Below, in pieces: positions 1-51,728 of a stretch of DNA of 64,000 nt. Position numbers and translations under genes: made by a program. The DNA comes from an uncultured delta proteobacterium. GTDB lineage: Bacteria; Desulfobacterota; Binatia; Binatales; Binataceae. The notes below the pieces were generated by a model. It made no database searches. It saw only the letters and a program-made list of their open reading frames with translations, and was not told the DNA's origin. Every line of letters begins with the position of its first letter. Within the stretch, counting starts at the first letter, position 1. The stretch is taken from positions 1,184,001 through 1,248,000 of the forward strand of contig CAWCDG010000004.1 in assembly GCA_963794325.1 (NCBI GenBank), given 5' to 3'.

Positions 1-1703
1 TCGGGCGCGAGCGTGAGCCGCACCTCGTTCCATACGAAGCTGGTGCCGGGCGCCTGCTTGAAGAAGTTGCCCGACGGCTGAAACACGATCGCGTTCGAGA
101 ACACCGCCACGCGCCCGGTGGGCTCGCGATGCGTCCCCGTCCCGCCCAATTCCATCAGCGAAAGTTTCACCAGCCCGATATCGATAACGTCTCCGGTCAC
201 GCCGCCGATTTGGACGCGATCGCCGGCTTTGATTCCGAATCGCCCGATTAGAAAGAAGTAGCCGGCGATCGACAGGATCACGTTCTGCAGCGCTACCGCG
301 ATACCCGCGGCGGCAAATCCCACCACGGTGGCGGCCGATCCGATCTCGTCGGAAAAGTTGACCATCAAGATGGTCACGATCAGCATGCCGAGCACGAAGC
401 GCCGCGCCGCCATCACCTGCCCGCGGCGCCGGATATCGCTGACGTAGCGATTGGTGATCCATTTCCACACCAGCGATCCGAGGAAAATCACCAGCAACGA
501 GGCGGCCAGCACGCTCAGGCGAATCAGCAGGCTGCGGAATTCCTTGTTCCAGCGCTGTTCGATCGCGCCGTGCCATCGGCCGACGTTGTTGGTGTAAATC
601 CCCAGCAGCACGATTTGCTTGCTGAGCGGCAGCGCGATTGCGCTCAGCATCTTGTGCTCGTCGAGCAGGCCCTCGAACGAAGTTTTCTGATTCTTGAGGG
701 TCGCGACGTCGAAGCCGCCGGCTCCATTCGCCAGCGCTTTGCCACGCGTGTCCAGGCCGCCGATCAAGCCGATGATAGATTTGCGGACATCCGCGGCGCG
801 CGCCGACAGCCCCTGCGCGAGCGCGATGTTCTGTTCCAGGGCGTCGAGCTTGTTGCTCAGCGCGAACAGGTCGGAGACGAGGCTCAGAATCCCGGTCGGC
901 TCAGCCCGCACCGGGAGACCAGTGTCGGCCGCCAAGGTAATCGGTTTCTTGTTGGCATCGGGAATCGAATGCTCGAGCTCGTCTATCTGGGCGGCGAGCG
1001 TGCTGGTCTGATCGGGCGACGCACTCCCGCTCTCGAACTGAGCGAGCGCGTTCAGCGCGTCGACGCGCGCCTGGGTGAGGTCGAGCTCGTTCTGCGCGCC
1101 CTGAATTTCGGAGGCGATCGCAGCGCGCTGTCGCGCCGGCGCTTTCGCCAGGCGAGCTTGTAAATCCTTGATACGCGCGCGGAGCGCGTTATCGGCGGCG
1201 TCGAGCGTCGCGGCGTTCTGCGCGATATTGCCCAGTGCCGCGGAGCCGGGCGAGTTGCCCGGCCCGGCGATCGCGCCGGCAGTCGGGTTGGTCTTGGCGA
1301 TAAACGCAGCCTGCGCGCGCGCAGTCTCGAAGGCCAGGCGCAGAACTTCGGCCGCCGTCTGGCGGTCGTTGGCGAAGAATAAAGTCTCGTCGGGATCGCG
1401 CACGAGTTGCGCTTCGCTGCCGAGATGCCCGTACCAGTTGATCACGTCGGTGAGGTACGCGATGACGCTGTGTGCGTCGAGCGGCAGCGCGCGCGATGCC
1501 GCCGCAGGACTTGCCGCAGCCTGCGGCTGCGGCGCGCCCGTCGCGACGACCGACGGCGCGGCCGACGCGCTCTGCGCGCCGGGCGTCGCCTTCGAACTCT
1601 GCGCAAACGCAGGCGCAATCGCGATTGCTGCGGCAATCGCAAACACGCCTGCCACCAGCAGGCGCAGGCTTATCGAGAGACTCGAAATCTTGAGAAATCG
1701 CAT
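1..1703 (-). CDS. Mechanosensitive ion channel (MscS family) with large N-terminal periplasmic coiled-coil region; runs off the window edge
   Basis: Absent from the ORF track; my minus-strand translation from ATG at 1703 gives a signal peptide, a helical region, TM helices and GFAAAGIAVALQNVILSIAGYFFLIGRFGIKAGDRVQIGGVTGDVIDIG, typical of MscS. Confidence 0.85.
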   Translation of the reverse strand, partial: MRFLKISSLSISLRLLVAGVFAIAAAIAIAPAFAQSSKATPGAQSASAAPSVVATGAPQPQAAASPAAASRALPLDAHSVIAYLTDVINWYGHLGSEAQLVRDPDETLFFANDRQTAAEVLRLAFETARAQAAFIAKTNPTAGAIAGPGNSPGSAALGNIAQNAATLDAADNALRARIKDLQARLAKAPARQRAAIASEIQGAQNELDLTQARVDALNALAQFESGSASPDQTSTLAAQIDELEHSIPDANKKPITLAADTGLPVRAEPTGILSLVSDLFALSNKLDALEQNIALAQGLSARAADVRKSIIGLIGGLDTRGKALANGAGGFDVATLKNQKTSFEGLLDEHKMLSAIALPLSKQIVLLGIYTNNVGRWHGAIEQRWNKEFRSLLIRLSVLAASLLVIFLGSLVWKWITNRYVSDIRRRGQVMAARRFVLGMLIVTILMVNFSDEIGSAATVVGFAAAGIAVALQNVILSIAGYFFLIGRFGIKAGDRVQIGGVTGDVIDIGLVKLSLMELGGTGTHREPTGRVAVFSNAIVFQPSGNFFKQAPGTSFVWNEVRLTLAP

Positions 1704-45063: not shown

Positions 45064-45912
45064 TCACGCGCGGCGGAATTTTGTTTGACGATCGGATTCC
45101 AGTTGGTCGGCGGCTTCGCGCGATGGGCGCGCGGGCATCCATCCTTTGGTGTAATCGATCTCTTCCCACGATCGATCGTTGGCGTCCCACACGTAAGGCA
45201 GCTCAACGATTGTCGCGGGAGCTGTGATCGTTTCGAACGCGCGCATCGCGTCCGTAACTATTCGGCGCTGTAGTTCAGGCTGATCGGGTGGTCCGGTCTG
45301 ATGGCCGAGCGGAAAATTTACGAACACGGCGCGCGGAGGTTTCACCGACTGCGTGATGTCGATAGCGGAAGTCATTGCGAGCGTGGGGATTCCCGCTTCT
45401 TCGACTGCGCGTGCGATCAGCCCAACGGACTGATGGCAAACGGGTCATGCAGGGACGAGGAAGAAAGCGTCGGCGTGCGCGCGCTTAAGTTCATCGACAA
45501 TCTGCGGCGCGAGCTCGTCGCGAACTTTGCGCGCCGAATAAATTCCGCCCATGAAACTGAACGCGGGATCGACGAGTTCACCGATGACGCCGGATGCGGC
45601 GAGCTCGCGCATCCGCTCCAGCGGGAAGACGCAGTTCACGTCACGCTCGGCGTCGCCAGTTGGATAGCCGAAGTGCCAAACGCTCAACTCGTCGCGGCGC
45701 GCATCGATCGGAATTCGGCGATACGACGCGTCCTCGCGGTGGAAGCGCGGCTGGTCGCGATACATTATTCCGCCCGAGCTCATCATGGCGATCCTGCACG
45801 CGGCGATGGGTTTGGAGAGCGGAGTGAATGGCGCGGAATCGTTCTCGACCCATCGGTAGGGAGTGAAATTGTTGTACAGATCGCGGGTGCGGGGAATGTA
45901 TGCGACTGGCAT
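45064..45912 (-). CDS. GrdB/PrdB-like selenoprotein with Sec at TGA 45445-45447 (UxxC motif)
   Basis: Two in-frame ORFs join as ...AFFLVPA-U-PVCHQSVGLIARAVEEAGIPT...; also DVNCVFPLERMREL and FPLGH. Confidence 0.85.
45412..45438 (-). promoter_or_regulatory. Candidate bacterial SECIS hairpin
   Basis: Just 3' of the UGA: UGCC-AUCAGUCC-GUU-GGGCUGAU-CGCA. Confidence 0.65.
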
Positions 45913-46313
45913 GCGACTCACTTTATGACGGCGCATAAGGATTCGGCAAATGGGAAATCCTCAGCGCAGCGCGAACGAGTTCTTGACACTAACCTGGCTT
46001 AGCGAGACGTTGTAGCCCTGAAAATATTCATTCTGGGGGAGCCGTTTGGAGAGTCCGTGTCTTTGACAACGATCAAGCATCAGGCACTCCCCCAATAGAT
46101 GTCTAAACAACAGGGAAGTGCAAGATGCGACGGGTATCGACGGCTAGAGCTAAATACGTTTATCAGGGTCATTGACTCTAGATATGGTTTTCTGCGATGA
46201 ATGGTCCGGCAAAGTGTCCCGGGGGGGACTGCGATTGTAATATTCGGGTTCCCGATTTGGGCGAGGCAGGCCAGAAGCCTTTTCTGGCGCGAGTTTCTAG
46301 GGAGGGACGGTAA

Positions 46314-47264
46314 ATGCACGTATCACTTAAGCATGCGCGGCGCGTATTGCTAAGCGTCGCGGCGGGGGCGCTGTTACTCGCCGCTGCGCCGGGATCCGGT
46401 CAAGCGGATATTCTCACGCTCTGCATCTCGCCGCAGCGTCAGCATGTAGTTTTACCGCTTGGCGGAAGCTGCAATAAGCCGAATCGACTAATCACCTGGG
46501 ATAGCGATGGCGTGGAAGGCCCGAGCGGACCGCAGGGTCCAAAGGGTATGCAAGGACCGCAGGGACCGACCGGCACTCCTGGCGAAATGGGAGCGCAGGG
46601 TCCCGCAGGACCGGCTGGCCCGATCGGGCCGGTTGGAAACGCCGGAGCCACGGGTCCGATGGGCAATGCAGGACCAATGGGTCAGCAAGGACCTGAAGGA
46701 GTGACAGGACCGACCGGAGCAACTGGCCCGATGGGACCGACTGGACTCATGGGAGTAAACGGGATCAACGGCACCCAGTTCTACACCCTCGGCGGTGGCA
46801 ACCTGGGGAGCAACGTCGAACTGCTGTTTGGCTACCAGAGCGTATTGGGCGGCCCGTACGGTCCAACCGGCTATAACCCCTACTGCACGACGGATACTTG
46901 CAGCAATAGCCCGATTTACTACGGTCCGGGGAACGGCGCCGACACGCAACTCGAAAGCGAAGCAGTGCCAATCGACGCTTCAACAGCAACTCAACTCTGG
47001 GTGCAGGTGAAGAACGTGCCGGGGCCGGGCGAGTACTATAAGTTCCACCTCTGTATCAACAAAAACTGCTACTCATCGCCGATCAGCTGCAAAATCGATA
47101 TCCCGAACCTGACTGAGTGCAACGATTTGGTCGACATGCAGAAGTTTAATGCTGGCGACACGATCGCGCTCAAGGGCGAGGCATCCGATGGTGCGGCGCC
47201 TACAGAAGTTTCGTGGATGGTGGTGATGCATCAGACTGGCGGGGACATCCCCGTCGGGCCGTGA
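46314..47264 (+). CDS. Secreted collagen-like protein 1 (30 Gly-X-Y triplets)
   Basis: Signal peptide, small 2-Cys N-domain, uninterrupted GXY, Cys-rich C-terminal beta domain ending IPVGP. Confidence 0.9.
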
Positions 47265-47329
47265 GCAGCCGGAACAGGGGAACGCGAATGTCGAGTACGC
47301 GAATGGTAACAGTCAGGGAGGGGACGAGA

Positions 47330-48343
47330 ATGCCTCAATCTTTTAGGAACGCGTGGCGCTGGCTCGTCGGAGTATCGGCGGCTGCGATGTTAATAGGAAT
47401 TGTGTCACCGGCGGCAAACGCCTGGGTTCCGGACACTGGCATCATCAGAATCTGTGTAGGCAACGGCGGCAGAATCGTTGGTGTCAATGTTCCTTGCAAA
47501 AACCACAATTTTGCATTGACCTGGAACATCCCGGGACCTACGGGTCCAGCAGGGGAGCAGGGCTATACCGGCCCGGCTGGCGCACCGGGTGCTGTAGGTG
47601 CGTCGGGTTCGCAAGGCCCGGTTGGGCCAATCGGTCCACAAGGCCCGATGGGCGCTCTGGGTCTTACCGGTCCTATGGGAGCGCAGGGAATGACAGGTCC
47701 GGCAGGGCCGACGGGTGACATGGGTAAACCCGGACCGACCGGACCTGCGGGTCCGATGGGAATGCAGGGACCAAACGCCACGCTTTCATTCGGTCCGGGC
47801 GACAACGTTGAGATCCTGAGCGGCGGAACGCTCGGCGCGACTATCGGCGCCGCTGCGTCGATTCAGCTGACCACGGAATCAGGTGATACGCCCGCCGGAG
47901 GGCCGACCTCCCCGATCTACATGGGACCGGGAAATGGTGCGGCCGCTGCGGGACTTACCTCGCTTCCTCCTGCTCCGACGGCTAATCCCCAGACCAGCGT
48001 CCAGGTGCCAACTCCGGGCGGCGTGGCGTTTAATATGACGGTTTCGATCACACCCCAGGACGCGGGTGCGTTGGGCTCGGATTACACCTTCATTCTGTGT
48101 AACGAAGGGGACTGCAACATACTGACCAATCCACATTGCAAAGTCGCTCATGATGCCCTTCCAGACCCGGATACGATGGTCTGCTCGACCAGCACCTTTA
48201 TTGGAAGCATCCCGACGCTGGCCTACCTGCCGGGCGACACTCTGTCGATACAGGCCTTCAAGTCTGAAGCTATGATACCGACCAACACCGTCGACGTAAG
48301 ATGGTCACTGGATTATGCAATCGACCCTGCGGATGCAATGTGA
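47330..48343 (+). CDS. Secreted collagen-like protein 2 (27 Gly-X-Y triplets)
   Basis: Same architecture; start [10 protein letters not shown] after a purine-rich RBS. Confidence 0.9.
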
Positions 48344-48430
48344 TTCCGGGACGCGAGGAGGAAAAGAGAGATGAAGTCGCGATCGGAATTCAGCAAGGGT
48401 GGAGGGCAACAGAAAATGGAGGGCGTCAAC

Positions 48431-49420
48431 ATGCCTGCTTCGTTTAAATCCGCGTGGCGTTTGCTGGTCGGTGTGACCGCCGCTACGATACTTTGTCTGG
48501 CAGCACTTCCAGGTGTCGGCCGGGCCGAGAATATCGAGATCTGTATCAACAACACCTCCGGTAGGATCAAGGGCATCAACCTTGGGGTTGGCAACTGCAC
48601 TGGAAATACCAGCGAGCTCGATTGGGTTTCGATCGGGCCTGAGGGACCTACCGGAATGCAGGGCGTAGTTGGTGATCCCGGACTTCAGGGCACGCAGGGG
48701 CCGCAGGGCGGCGTCGGCAACCAGGGGCCATCGGGAGCGATGGGAGCCGCAGGACCGCAGGGTCCGCAGGGCGATATCGGCCAGACCGGACCGACGGGCC
48801 CGGCAGGAATCATGGGTGAGGAAGGAATCCGCGGAGCCACGGGGCTGGCTGGACCTACCGGCATGACCGGACCGTCCGGCACAAATGGAATCCCCGAGCC
48901 GAATATCTCCGTCTTCGCTGGCGGTTCGCTGGGGACGCTGGGAGCGGAAAACGGCACTGATCTATCAGGGAATAACAGTGTCTACGCCAACATCCTGATA
49001 CTTGGACCGGGCAACGGTTCGGACACGGCACCGCCACCGACGACCGACGTACCGATGTCAGAGCCTGGAACCGCGAAACGCCTGTTCGTTAATGTGGACG
49101 CCGATCCCGGAACCGATATGAATATCGGCCTGCCGTCTAGCTTCTATTTCTTTCTGTGCAAGAACGACGACTATCCCGCAAGTTGCGGCCTTTCCTGCAT
49201 CATAACCGCACCCGACACGACGTGCAGCGACCTGATTGGTTCACAGGCATACACTGTGAGCGTCACTCCTCCAGCGCTGCCTGGCCTCCAGCCTGTGCCG
49301 AATCCTGACGAAATGAGTCTGTGGGCATACGCCGACTATCCGGGAGCGAATCACGCCAACGTGAAATGGTCAGTGACCTACGATCACGGCAATCCTATCC
49401 TTATCCCTGTCGGGCCGTAA
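48431..49420 (+). CDS. Secreted collagen-like protein 3 (29 Gly-X-Y triplets)
   Basis: Same architecture; start MPASFKSAWR after GGAGG; ends IPVGP. Confidence 0.9.
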   Translation: MPASFKSAWRLLVGVTAATILCLAALPGVGRAENIEICINNTSGRIKGINLGVGNCTGNTSELDWVSIGPEGPTGMQGVVGDPGLQGTQGPQGGVGNQGPSGAMGAAGPQGPQGDIGQTGPTGPAGIMGEEGIRGATGLAGPTGMTGPSGTNGIPEPNISVFAGGSLGTLGAENGTDLSGNNSVYANILILGPGNGSDTAPPPTTDVPMSEPGTAKRLFVNVDADPGTDMNIGLPSSFYFFLCKNDDYPASCGLSCIITAPDTTCSDLIGSQAYTVSVTPPALPGLQPVPNPDEMSLWAYADYPGANHANVKWSVTYDHGNPILIPVGP

Positions 49421-49448
49421 TTGTAGAATCCACCGTTGAATTGAGAGT

Positions 49449-49482
49449 GAAAGCCCTTGGGTAACTCCAGGGGCTTTCTTTT
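49449..49482 (+). terminator. Intrinsic terminator after the collagen genes
   Basis: GAAAGCCCTTGG/CCAGGGGCTTTC stem plus T-tract. Confidence 0.75.
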
Positions 49483-49574
49483 ATTGGACGAGGGGGATTG
49501 GACTGTTGGTCGGAAGAGGAGGACTTCCTTTGAAAGCACAGCCCAGATTGATTTCCAGCTACGAACGAGTCGCA

Positions 49575-51728
49575 ATGCAAAGCACCTGGTCCGCAACCTT
49601 CAGAATCTTCGCCGGCGTGCTATTGGCGGCGGGCATGATCAGCGCGCCGAGTGCGTGGGCGTTCGACGTAAAGAGCGCAAAGCTGATCGATAAAGGATTC
49701 AAGATTTTCACCAACGAGACCTTCAATGGCAACGGCCGTACCTGCTCAACCTGCCATATACCCAAGGACGACTATACGATCAGCCCGGCGGATCTCGCCA
49801 CGCTGAGTGCCCATGACAAAGACCTTGTGTTTGCGACGCACAATTCGCAGCTCGAAAACCGGATCCTGGTAAATAAATACGGTCTGTTCAACATCACTAA
49901 CGAGACGCCTGGCGCAAGCGGAAGGGGGACAACCCCGACCGGTCCGTTCCGCGCCTCGATGCAGCTAAGCGGATTGGCGCTCACCACGCTGAACGATTGC
50001 CCAAACGCGACCTTGATTGCCTCGGCCACCGATACCGGCGCCACCGCCGAGATTACAACCGCTACGCCTCCCACCTTTCCGTTTGCGTTAAACGAGCAGA
50101 TAAGAATCGAGGGAGTCAGCGTCGCCGGTTACAATGGCAGCACGTTTGAGATCTCGAGCGTAATCAGTCCCACGACATTCCAGTACACGACGTTGACTGG
50201 AGCCGCTATCACGGGACTCCCCTCGGTAGGGCCAGGCGGCGGTGTCAGCGGGCTGCCCACTCCACCCACTACTACAACGGGGTCGGGAGTGTGTTCGACT
50301 GCACCTAATTTCGCAACGACCCCGACCACCACAGGCACCCGGTTCATAGAGCTCGGCTGGGCTGGAGATGGCGCACCCCTTGACCCCACGCTTTTCGAAG
50401 TTGGCAAACCTCGCGATTACGCGGATTGCGTGGCCGCCGTCAATAACGCGGACGCCAACCAGAGCGTTCTCAGCCCGGTGCTGAATGCGTTTTCGACCGG
50501 CGCCGTCAGACACCATTTCGCGCGCACCAACGCCCGCGTGCCGGGAAAGGATTTCCGCTGCCCGACTGCCGCGGAGTTGAATGCGCTCACAGCCTTTCAA
50601 GAGTACCTCGGGCGCCAATTTCCATCTGGCACACCTCTCGAACTCGCCTTGGAAGCTGGAACAACGTTCCCGGGGACGCAGGTCAGCTCCCTGCAGCCTG
50701 TGATCACTTTCAATGACTCCACGGCGGAGACAGGCAAGGCGATATTCCTGAATCCGAGCGCAGCCTGCAATTTCTGCCACTTCAATGCCGGCGCGAGCAT
50801 GACCACAACCCAGGTAAAAACGGAGCCGTTGGGAGACCCACCGCTGCCGTTTCCGGGACGCAACGAAAATAACTCGCAACTGGTGGACGTCTTGACCGAC
50901 ACCTCCTTTCTTATTCCGTCAACCGGAGAGACGGTCACCGGCGGGCTCAACGCCTCGACGCTGGTCACCATAGGCAAGGATCCCGGAGACGGAAATCCTT
51001 TCAGCGACAAGCATGGCGGGTTCCTACCGGTGTTCAACGTCCAATCAATCATCGAGGCGCCGCGCAAAAAGAGCTTTTTCCACAATGGCGCTTTCAATAC
51101 CAGCGTAGAGGACGCGGCTTCCTTCTACTTTGGCAACCCCACGGTCCAAACTTCGGGTAGCACGCTCGTCACGCCCGGATTCGACCTTGCCAGCGGCAAC
51201 TTTGCGATTGGCACTAACCAGGATGGCTCAGCCGTGACCCTCGCCGCTGGCTTGCCAAGTCCCCTGCCAAGAGCGGCGGGACAAAAAACCGGCACTCAGG
51301 CCCTTGTGGCTCTTGCCGGCACTTACTTTCCCGCCGATTCGGTGTCCGGCAATGTGCTCACTTCGCCGGGCGGGCAGGATGTGCTCAATACCCTTGGCTT
51401 CTTCATGAGGGCGCTTAACGTGGTTTACAGCCTGGCCGACTGCGAGCGGCTGGTGGACGACACGGTCAGCCGTCACGATGCGGGTTTGTCCACGGAGGTG
51501 CCGGTCCTCAACTGCACCACCGACCTGGGAGATGTGTACCGCGTCATTGCGGGCGCGCGCGTGACCGTTCCGGACAACTACGTCACCGTCCAGATGCAGG
51601 CTCAGAGCCTCCAGGGCGAGTTGAAGAAGTACGCGAGGCAGGGCAATCGCGCGAAGCTCAAAGGAGTTATCAATCAGCTGCAGGCCATGAGAAACTCGAT
51701 CGCATCGATCTCGCCAGACCTGCCGTGA
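49575..51728 (+). CDS. Secreted di-heme c protein of the bCcP/MauG superfamily with an inserted Thr-rich beta domain
   Basis: Signal peptide ending AWA; GNGRTCSTCH and CNFCH; LGWAGDG; FFHNG...VEDAASFY. Confidence 0.8.
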   Translation: MQSTWSATFRIFAGVLLAAGMISAPSAWAFDVKSAKLIDKGFKIFTNETFNGNGRTCSTCHIPKDDYTISPADLATLSAHDKDLVFATHNSQLENRILVNKYGLFNITNETPGASGRGTTPTGPFRASMQLSGLALTTLNDCPNATLIASATDTGATAEITTATPPTFPFALNEQIRIEGVSVAGYNGSTFEISSVISPTTFQYTTLTGAAITGLPSVGPGGGVSGLPTPPTTTTGSGVCSTAPNFATTPTTTGTRFIELGWAGDGAPLDPTLFEVGKPRDYADCVAAVNNADANQSVLSPVLNAFSTGAVRHHFARTNARVPGKDFRCPTAAELNALTAFQEYLGRQFPSGTPLELALEAGTTFPGTQVSSLQPVITFNDSTAETGKAIFLNPSAACNFCHFNAGASMTTTQVKTEPLGDPPLPFPGRNENNSQLVDVLTDTSFLIPSTGETVTGGLNASTLVTIGKDPGDGNPFSDKHGGFLPVFNVQSIIEAPRKKSFFHNGAFNTSVEDAASFYFGNPTVQTSGSTLVTPGFDLASGNFAIGTNQDGSAVTLAAGLPSPLPRAAGQKTGTQALVALAGTYFPADSVSGNVLTSPGGQDVLNTLGFFMRALNVVYSLADCERLVDDTVSRHDAGLSTEVPVLNCTTDLGDVYRVIAGARVTVPDNYVTVQMQAQSLQGELKKYARQGNRAKLKGVINQLQAMRNSIASISPDLP

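Follow-up and report, generated by a model that had tools for sequence, protein, structure and literature searches.

Three tandem collagen-like genes with jointly varying stalk lengths in Candidatus Binatus: a probable ABC heterotrimer

We analyzed three tandem genes for collagen-like proteins, here named A, B and C (the triad), which lie in a 64,000-nucleotide (nt) stretch of DNA referred to below as the window (assembly GCA_963794325.1, contig CAWCDG010000004.1, positions 1,184,001 to 1,248,000 of the forward strand). The host is a metagenome-assembled genome (MAG) of Candidatus Binatus (Binataceae), designated G000, and related MAGs come from soil and peat. All of the genomes compared were MAGs; the G and L numbers are working labels for genomes and loci, respectively. 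The locus under study, window positions 46314–49420 on the + strand, appears in the list of open reading frames (ORFs) as three tandem + strand frames (46314–47264, 47213/47330–48343 and 48371/48431–49420), and its end coordinates in a first-pass annotation, made earlier from the letters of this DNA, were exact. The features of the locus are as follows.

46314..47264, +: chain A gene, 316 amino acids (aa), based on the ORF, the ribosome-binding site, Pfam Collagen and orthologue clade A
aa 1–31 of chain A, +: signal peptide, judged by eye
46407–46508, + (aa 32–65): 2-Cys N-domain of chain A, from the alignment of the three chains
46509–46778, + (aa 66–155): stalk of chain A, a run of 30 Gly-X-Y triplets
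46779–47261, + (aa 156–316): head of chain A, modeled with a predicted local distance difference test score (pLDDT) of 86.1
47330..48343, +: chain B gene, 337 aa from the ATG at 47330, with the frame open from 47213
47423–47533, +: N-domain of chain B, from the alignment of the three chains
47534–47776, +: stalk of chain B, a run of 27 triplets
47777–48340, +: head of chain B, from the alignment of the three chains
48431..49420, +: chain C gene, 329 aa from the ATG at 48431, with alternative ATGs at 48371 and 48416; orthologue clade C
48527–48634, +: N-domain of chain C, from the alignment of the three chains
48635–48895, +: stalk of chain C, a run of 29 triplets
48896–49417, +: head of chain C, from the alignment of the three chains
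49449..49478, +: intrinsic-terminator-like hairpin, a 13-bp stem followed by a T run, 29 nt 3′ of the C stop codon

A GGGAGGG-like ribosome-binding site was found 6–8 nt 5′ of 46314, 47330 and 48431, which on sequence grounds are likely the translation starts of A, B and C. The start of B was chosen by its ribosome-binding site (GGGAGGGG) and by the N-terminus MPQSF.., conserved among orthologues, while in C the N-terminus MPASF.. is conserved in the same way. The N-termini of all three chains are hydrophobic and signal-like. They are followed by a segment of about 35 residues in which, according to the three-chain alignment, two Cys (C37 and C53 of A) and one Trp (W62) are invariant. The spacing C-x8-W-x3-G is common to A, B and C, with the first stalk Gly located at W+4. 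The first-pass annotation had described uninterrupted stalks of 30, 27 and 29 triplets starting in this W-x3-G register, as well as a shared 2-Cys N-domain and shared C-terminal motifs, and all of this was borne out: our longest triplet runs were identical, and the motifs GG-x-L-G, GPGNG, VP, F-x-L-C and a later Cys of the 161–188-residue heads were invariant or nearly so in both the 3-way and the 57-way alignments. Since identity to chain A is only 33% for B and 43% for C, the three chains are, judging by their sequences, old paralogues.

Collagen (PF01391) was the sole Pfam family scoring for each chain, with E-values of 3e-14, 5.2e-14 and 1.9e-13 for A, B and C and bit scores of 53, 52.2 and 50.4 against a gathering cut-off of 27.2. 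The only strong terminator-like hairpin in 45900–49800 stands after C, none of that strength lying between the genes, and this suggests that A-B-C is one transcription unit; the pattern scan for terminators found 2 sites where 3.0 are expected, which makes the position of the hairpin suggestive and no proof. Contigs of an RNA library (one soil metatranscriptome) cover 22 of the 30 bins of A-B-C at an identity of at least 88%, mostly with sequences of relatives, and 9 of 60 contigs are at least 99% alike to the locus. They give a hint of expression of the triad, although contigs from an RNA library do not prove transcription.

The triad is kept at one syntenic site across the genus. Within the genus, a single head used as the query found the locus in 18 of 36 other genomes, and in other genera of the class it found the locus in none of 24. 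The A3 profile, built from 57 heads, gave matches in 35 of 47 genomes of the genus, with exactly three matches in 25 (those of G010 on two contigs); these tallies include the unpublished genome G019, without which they become 34 of 46 and 24, respectively. Six matches in G016 correspond to two triads. Four were found in G005, G026 and G066, due to a chain split by a frame break in the latter two and to a second copy of C, across contig ends, in G005. Two matches occurred in G030, where a contig end cuts the locus, and in G009 and G070, whose third chain was found separately. The single matches in G006, G015 and G025 come from solitary genes that have this architecture but lie elsewhere in the genome. 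The paralogue count per locus in relatives, a check proposed in the first-pass annotation, thus came out at three chains for every complete locus at the canonical site, the second C of G005 being the one addition. The A-B-C order was constant in all complete loci, with the chains told apart by their N-termini.

In the maximum-likelihood tree of the 57 heads, the three chains formed separate clades, namely A (18 rows; support of 99 in the Shimodaira–Hasegawa-like approximate likelihood ratio test), C (20 rows; 96) and B (16 rows; 86), and long-stalk chains fell within their own clade. Because the clades are distinct and the long-stalk chains lie inside them, the triplication, as read from the sequences, predates the diversification of the genus. 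The earlier argument that the chains are not a recent tandem amplification therefore holds, both by their low identities and by the three old orthologous clades.

One lineage has changed all three chains together. In G066, Gly-X-Y follows directly on the signal peptide in every chain of the triad, with loss of both the 2-Cys N-domain and the first few triplets; these three ORFs lie at about 3777–6520 of L061 (also L151, G066:C25).

Single frame breaks, each in one chain and with the gene resuming in another frame, were seen in six MAGs (L039, L042, L032, L043, L145 and L061). The broken chain was B in G036, G002 and G026, A in G014 and G065 and C in G066. These breaks may be assembly errors or young pseudogenes.

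Two of the solitary genes carry the same N-domain and head family away from the triad site. L156 1635–2903 (G006:C4) has a 65-triplet stalk, and L158 1252–3138 (G025:C394) has 7+43+60 triplets with breaks. They are presumably homotrimeric cousins of the triad chains.

The strongest regularity of the triad concerns its stalk lengths. Length was measured in residues from the first stalk Gly (W+4) to GG-x-L-G of the head, using the genomes of the genus and 73 metagenome loci; in the unique set, loci with identical heads were removed. In the window, A/B/C are 95/96/95. A and C were equal in all 53 loci readable for both and in all 41 unique complete triads, which fall into the classes 92, 95, 119, 167 and 263. 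Chain B was equal to A and C or 1–8 residues longer, the difference between B and C being 0 in 15 loci, +1 in 26, +3 in 13, +6 in 1 and +8 in 1. The unique triads were distributed by A/B/C lengths as follows.

92/92/92: 6 unique triads
92/93/92: 10 unique triads
95/95/95: 3 unique triads
95/96/95: 11 unique triads
95/98/95: 6 unique triads
95/101/95: 1 unique triad
95/103/95: 1 unique triad
119/119/119: 1 unique triad
167/167/167: 1 unique triad
263/263/263: 1 unique triad

Partial or frame-broken loci gave A/C of 143/143 in G036 and B/C of 239/239 in L140 and 263/263 in G065, the second locus of G016 gave 74/74, and the more diverged triads gave 116/127/117, 117/127/117 and 116/131/117. Free variation of stalk length among relatives would have refuted the first-pass annotation by its own terms: length does vary, from 74 to 263 residues, but always by joint shifts in the orthologous chains. 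Mapped on a tree of 74 unique C heads, the length label must have changed at least 16 times, and the well-supported branches alone force at least 4 changes between classes 92 and 95.

The classes 119, 143, 167, 239 and 263 exceed 95 by multiples of 24 residues. In L130, the stalks of 86/86/85 triplets consist of tandem 24-residue (8-triplet) units whose sequence is specific to each chain. Because these units are chain-specific, each gene appears to have expanded its own repeat, with only matched sets being seen. Gene conversion as a source of the equal lengths was ruled out by the same chain-specific units and by the identities at X and Y positions, which are 0.24–0.39 at arbitrary offsets for stalks of the same locus and 0.3–0.76 at offsets of 0, 16 and 24 triplets for orthologous stalks.

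A C-terminal tail of 110–130 residues, made of Thr/Pro/Ala/Asp repeats, follows the head in the long-stalk triads of classes 143, 167 and 263, and there only in chain C (L130 3906–5780, L039 6908–8377 and the C chains of L043 and L044). This tail may serve as a linker, a region for glycosylation or an anchor.

The head was modeled with AlphaFold2 from the 57-row alignment as a beta-sandwich (pLDDT 86.1, predicted template modeling score (pTM) 0.83). The top Foldseek matches were the gC1q domains of C1QL3 and C1QL1, 4-1BBL, ExsF, ExsFA and the C1q domain of Caprin-2, with E-values from 1.7e-4 to 1e-3 and template modeling (TM) scores of 0.35–0.47. In the VIA fold search Z did not exceed 7.7, and a protease C-domain, 4-1BBL, phage cement proteins, plant virus capsids, EDA, ExsFA, F-BclA and C1q were tied within about 1 Z. 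The model places the head among jelly rolls of the broad TNF/C1q/viral-capsid kind, to which its likeness is weak. The Foldseek comparison suggested by the first-pass annotation thus did bring up jelly rolls of the C1q/TNF/ExsF type, although weakly (C1QL3 at E 1.7e-4, TM 0.37–0.43). No C1q or TNF match was obtained in Pfam at E ≤ 1 for A, B or C, and the head family was not found in Pfam, NCBIfam or PHROG.

A search of the A3 profile against 1.84 billion proteins gave 2648 representatives at E ≤ 1e-3, 773 at ≤ 1e-10 and 29 at ≤ 1e-30. The family is marked by a domain of about 150 residues bearing GG-x-L-G, GPGNG, VP, F-x-L-C and, further on, C-x(n)-C, and the triad heads have this signature. 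Among the best 150 of the 2648 representatives, 82 had exactly three tandem heads without collagen, 32 had collagen (31 with one head and 1 with two), and 17 were single-head proteins without collagen, many of them fragments; two heads were seen in 11, four in 2, five in 4, six in 1 and seven in 1. One of the three-head proteins, P0041, was modeled as a compact unit (pLDDT 93.8, pTM 0.91), and the model implies a fixed packing of its three heads. Its best Foldseek matches in the PDB were single-chain trimers of the C1q/TNF class made by engineering, namely those of Cbln1, of the C1q head, of adiponectin and of APRIL-BAFF-BAFF (E 1e-9 to 4e-8, TM 0.22–0.26). VIA rows pair residues near its N-terminus with the third domain (e.g., 14..406, about 120 aligned residues), and an exchange of strands between neighboring domains of the model would fit this.

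The same head family extends to viruses. With the three-head model as the query, BFVD returned collagen-repeat proteins of Klosneuvirus KNV1 at 31–40% identity and a root-mean-square deviation (rmsd) of 1.3–1.5 Å over 124–127 columns. A head of this family (25–40% identity, rmsd 1.3–1.5 Å) also forms the end of collagen-repeat proteins from Klosneuvirus KNV1, Solumvirus and Edafosvirus in the same database, and the head is for this reason common to soil bacteria and giant viruses. The Atlas clusters nearest to the three-head form were 86–100% viral, and single fused three-head proteins had no match in viral contigs or GenBank phages.

When the heads of A, B and C were predicted together, each with its orthologue alignment, the interaction prediction score from aligned errors (ipSAE) was 0.88 (0.88, 0.89 and 0.85 in the runs) against 0.25 for the best control. 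This mark was attained in 58 of 80 solved complexes, as compared with 2 of 110 mismatched pairs. At least 87% of contacts were common to the runs, with a partner pLDDT of at least 89. In the prediction, the VP strand of A lies on C's F-V-N and K-W-S strands, that of C lies on the matching strands of B, and the GGxLG segment and GPGNG are also within the interface. The prediction supports trimerization of the heads as a ring running from A to C to B. As a check on the trimer it therefore came out in part: the ABC complex stood clear of the control, but the method does not distinguish ABC from the homotrimers.

Based on the above results, it is likely that A, B and C form one heterotrimeric collagen with a 1:1:1 composition. 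A shared triple helix held at both ends is the simplest account of the old chains in fixed order, the equality of A and C spacing, the joint loss of the N-domain, the predicted head trimer and the three-head fusions, and together these make the comparative evidence for a mixed ABC helix unusually strong. We suggest the following assembly. The chains would leave the cell by Sec signal peptides and join 1:1:1 in one triple helix. Their C-terminal jelly-roll heads would pack as a pseudo-threefold A-C-B ring, which would pick the chains and nucleate the helix at its C-terminal end. The helix would then zip toward the N-terminus, where the 2-Cys domains (C-x8-W-x3-G) would keep the chains in register, probably via disulfides. 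Folding in this direction, with selection of chains by the head, is applied here by analogy with animal collagens, whose folding begins C-terminally and whose chains are chosen by non-collagenous domains, as stated in the available parts of two papers (PMC11923368; PMC8968730). If both ends are fixed in this manner, the residue count from the N-anchor to the head should be equal in the three chains, and a change of stalk length would survive only if made alike in each of the three genes. In B, the additional residues fall within the non-collagen linker ahead of GGxLG and could loop out. The helix may also contain a specific contact: Lys at Y of triplet 4 in A and Asp at X of triplet 5 in C fit the geometry of an inter-chain axial salt bridge, which favors ABC. 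In 14 loci, both residues were present in 7, neither in 5, Asp alone in 2 and Lys alone in none, a suggestive distribution.

The collagen helix rises 0.29 nm per residue, and 90 residues correspond to about 26 nm. For the product this would mean a rigid stalk about 26 nm long in this genome, with lengths of up to about 75 nm among relatives. Most likely the fiber is extracellular or in the envelope, and its head binds a ligand. An exported fiber with a binding head is probably the function of the triad, which fits its Sec-type signals, rigid stalk, fast-evolving head and the head relatives on viral fibers or virions.

A number of points weigh against a heterotrimer. The loci are related, and 41 of 41 does not mean 41 independent events, although changes of class have nevertheless been many. 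Chain B is not exactly matched, being 0 to 8 residues longer than C. Prediction of the complex cannot separate ABC from AAA, BBB and CCC, and close cousins of a true partner pass as well. Since the contact motifs (VP strand, W strand and GPGNG) are conserved in all three chains, homotrimeric heads look sterically possible too in the models, and since solitary genes of the same architecture exist (L156 and L158), the head can presumably also work as a homotrimer. P0041 as a whole did not superpose on single-chain trimers of C1q, adiponectin or TNF (TM 0.22–0.26; VIA aligned one domain only, Z ≤ 5.7), and a C1q/TNF trimer geometry is not claimed for it. Axial charge pairs, scored for 27 chain combinations in 11 loci, gave nets of 8 for ACC and CAC, 7 for AAC, 6 for ACB and 5 for BAC, and homotrimers gave +4 (CCC), −3 (AAA) and −4 (BBB), the charges being too sparse to decide. 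Moreover, the ABC model is derived from MAG sequences and from predictions.

Several of these points would suit three homotrimers, A3, B3 and C3, standing side by side in a surface layer or bundle of fixed height, where selection equalizes the lengths without mixing of the chains. Such an arrangement is unlikely, even though it agrees with solitary relatives having the same N-domain and head, with head contact motifs common to all three chains and with a charge analysis that did not single out ABC. It also agrees with the description of characterized bacterial collagen-like proteins as homotrimers, a statement of the first-pass annotation with which the available part of a 2022 review is in accord (PMC8968730). 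A common height does not need the single-residue equality that A and C show, across at least five classes, in all 41 unique triads. Nor would separate homotrimers lead one to expect distinct chains in a fixed order with no locus down to one or two intact chains, the loss of the N-domain by all chains at once in one lineage, or the dominance of three-head fusions in the wider family.

A mixed assembly other than 1:1:1, for instance one of A2C or AC2 in which B stands apart or one with chains mixing promiscuously, is very unlikely. It would explain why A and C are exactly matched and B is often 1–8 residues longer, as well as the highest charge scores for ACC, CAC and AAC. Against it, B is present in every complete triad and shifts class alongside A and C (all three are equal at 119, 167 and 263), its extra residues are confined to the linker, and the predicted head ring uses all the chains, with high confidence at both interfaces of C. 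Finally, that the genes are ordinary diverged tandem paralogues with independent functions, whose matched lengths were inherited and not selected, is highly improbable, as common descent could account for most loci (classes 92 and 95) but not for partner chains that changed at each of the class changes on the C-head tree, nor for inserted repeat units that are chain-specific.

A wider proposition about the ABC heterotrimer is fairly probable: that the triad is a natural obligate ABC collagen whose origin is independent of animal C1q and collagens, in which an undescribed jelly-roll head acts as selector and register-setter, the N-terminus is held by a Cys knot, and length is set by matched changes of three genes, mostly in eight-triplet quanta. 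Whatever the composition of the helix, the conserved three-gene collagen system with its undescribed head family is real.

The surroundings of the triad are those of a chromosomal site with conserved neighbors. It is flanked by genes for a TonB-dependent receptor, CobS, CobT, a nitroreductase, Tpx and MAPEG, a GRDB-like gene, and genes for a luciferase-like monooxygenase and a short-chain dehydrogenase/reductase (SDR), and in relatives it always lies between the GRDB-like gene and the monooxygenase gene. Among closer species, the triad heads are 63–75% identical and the flanking proteins mostly 85–99%; within G000, the head is confined to A, B and C. A prophage origin of the triad was ruled out by the conserved housekeeping nature of the flanks. 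More diverged triads occupy the same site in G034, G009 and G070. As for genomes of the genus that have no triad, this site is empty in G006 and contains a gene for a 740-aa protein alone in G018.

The GRDB-like gene (window 45064–45936, − strand) matches PF07355 (E 1.7e-10) and is split by one in-frame TGA. With this TGA read as selenocysteine, the product has 290 aa and a U-P-V-C motif at residue 164. Both halves were found at 81–97% identity in nearly all of the relatives' loci searched, and the sequence suggests that the gene probably encodes a small selenoprotein B-like redox protein. Downstream of the triad, a 740-aa ORF (window 49506–51728, + strand) has a signal-like N-terminus, two CxxCH motifs and no Pfam family; from its sequence it is possibly a dihaem protein and a variable neighbor. 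It was rejected as a partner of the triad, as it occurs in 4 of the 20 relatives' loci searched and lies beyond the terminator. In G034, a 656-aa polytopic membrane ORF (L142 1046–3016, − strand), absent from the window, lies between the diverged triad and the monooxygenase gene and has a C-terminal TPR-like stretch with Pfam TPR matches below the threshold. Elsewhere in G000, a 276-aa ORF (L005 1426–2256, G000:C5:340479–341309) combines a signal and about 10–13 Gly-X-Y triplets with an unrelated C-terminal part, and its 2-Cys segment is weakly like the N-domain of the triad (E 0.02). Other collagen-like frames of this genome are C4:1371890–1373566 and C9:126857–128143.

A mixed ABC collagen, which has not yet been shown for bacteria, fits the lock-step stalk lengths and is probable. 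In the literature searched, which covered few subscription journals, we found no report of collagen in Binatota (this combination of terms gave sponge genome notes only) and no report of a demonstrated natural heterotrimeric collagen of bacteria. The homotrimeric state of bacterial collagens limits their use as models of heterotrimeric animal collagens, as noted in the available text of the 2022 review (PMC8968730). If the proposed composition is true, the triad would be the first prokaryotic heterotrimeric collagen and would offer a ready-made, hydroxyproline-free chain-selection module, with domains that select chains and set their register without the need for hydroxylation. It would also provide a system for reading stalk length as a trait that co-evolves, and a case in which the C1q-like design arose independently in evolution. 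The head itself defines a large unannotated family, represented by 2648 proteins and occurring also in giant-virus collagen and in three-head phage-like proteins. For Binatota, which are known from MAGs only, the gene sequences point to a conspicuous, fast-evolving exported fiber.

Among known systems, the closest in design is complement C1q of vertebrates, the A, B and C chains of which come from three tandem genes. Like the triad, it has neighboring paralogous genes, an N-terminal Cys segment, stalks of similar length and a C-terminal jelly-roll head, with a heterotrimeric head proposed to select the chains. The C1q-family heads of C1QL3, C1QL1, Caprin-2, Cbln1 and C1q are among the best fold matches of the triad head. 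The differences are that the triad chains lack Pfam membership in this family, the fold match is weak (Foldseek E about 2e-4, TM 0.35–0.45; VIA Z 6.3–6.6), and the triad has uninterrupted stalks and is bacterial and Sec-exported. It should be noted that the VIA Z of 6.3–7.4 for 4-1BBL, EDA, C1QL1 and C1q stands among many other jelly rolls with an equal Z. The C1q-like 1:1:1 heterotrimer of the first-pass annotation is thus supported as regards composition, by the joint stalk lengths and the predicted head trimer, and unsupported as regards homology to C1q. The likeness between the triad and C1q is most simply a convergent architecture.

In bacteria, the closest precedent for a three-gene set is given by the collagen-like protein (PCL) triplets of Pasteuria ramosa, of which 13 are known and which contain one gene each of groups 1, 2 and 3 in a fixed order and orientation, as far as the available parts of the reports describe them (PMC13233619; bioRxiv 10.1101/2025.03.22.644704). 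The triad shares this arrangement by its A-B-C order and three clades; the likeness is one of arrangement. According to the same parts, PCL proteins are highly diverse and surface-related, and they differ from the triad in belonging to Bacillota, in their location on the endospore surface and in the many triplets per genome. In the accessible portion of another paper, Pcl7 was modeled as a BclA-based homotrimer, and heterotrimers were raised just as a general possibility (PMC7743900); none of these texts, as far as available, demonstrates a heterotrimer.

BclA, ExsFA and BxpB of the Bacillus exosporium resemble the triad in having a collagen stalk of variable length and a C-terminal TNF/C1q-like jelly-roll trimer, and the triad head matched the folds of ExsFA (Z 6.7), the F-BclA C-terminal domain (Z 6.7) and BclA (Z 4.4), with no Pfam match. 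In contrast to the triad, they are single-gene homotrimers without the 2-Cys N-domain, and they have no sequence family in common with it. Scl1 and Scl2 of Streptococcus and Lcl of Legionella share the Gly-X-Y stalk, which is all that the NCBIfam models match, with scores far below the cut-offs (61.6 against 325 for Scl2/SclB, 49.9 against 400 for Scl1/SclA and 51.2 against 500 for Lcl). These three proteins are homotrimers, the globular domain of Scl is N-terminal, and the triad chains have no LPXTG motif. The systems that share the head family itself are the Klosneuvirus-like collagen-repeat proteins and the phage-like three-head proteins, the former with no known triad arrangement and the latter with three heads fused in one protein without a collagen stalk.

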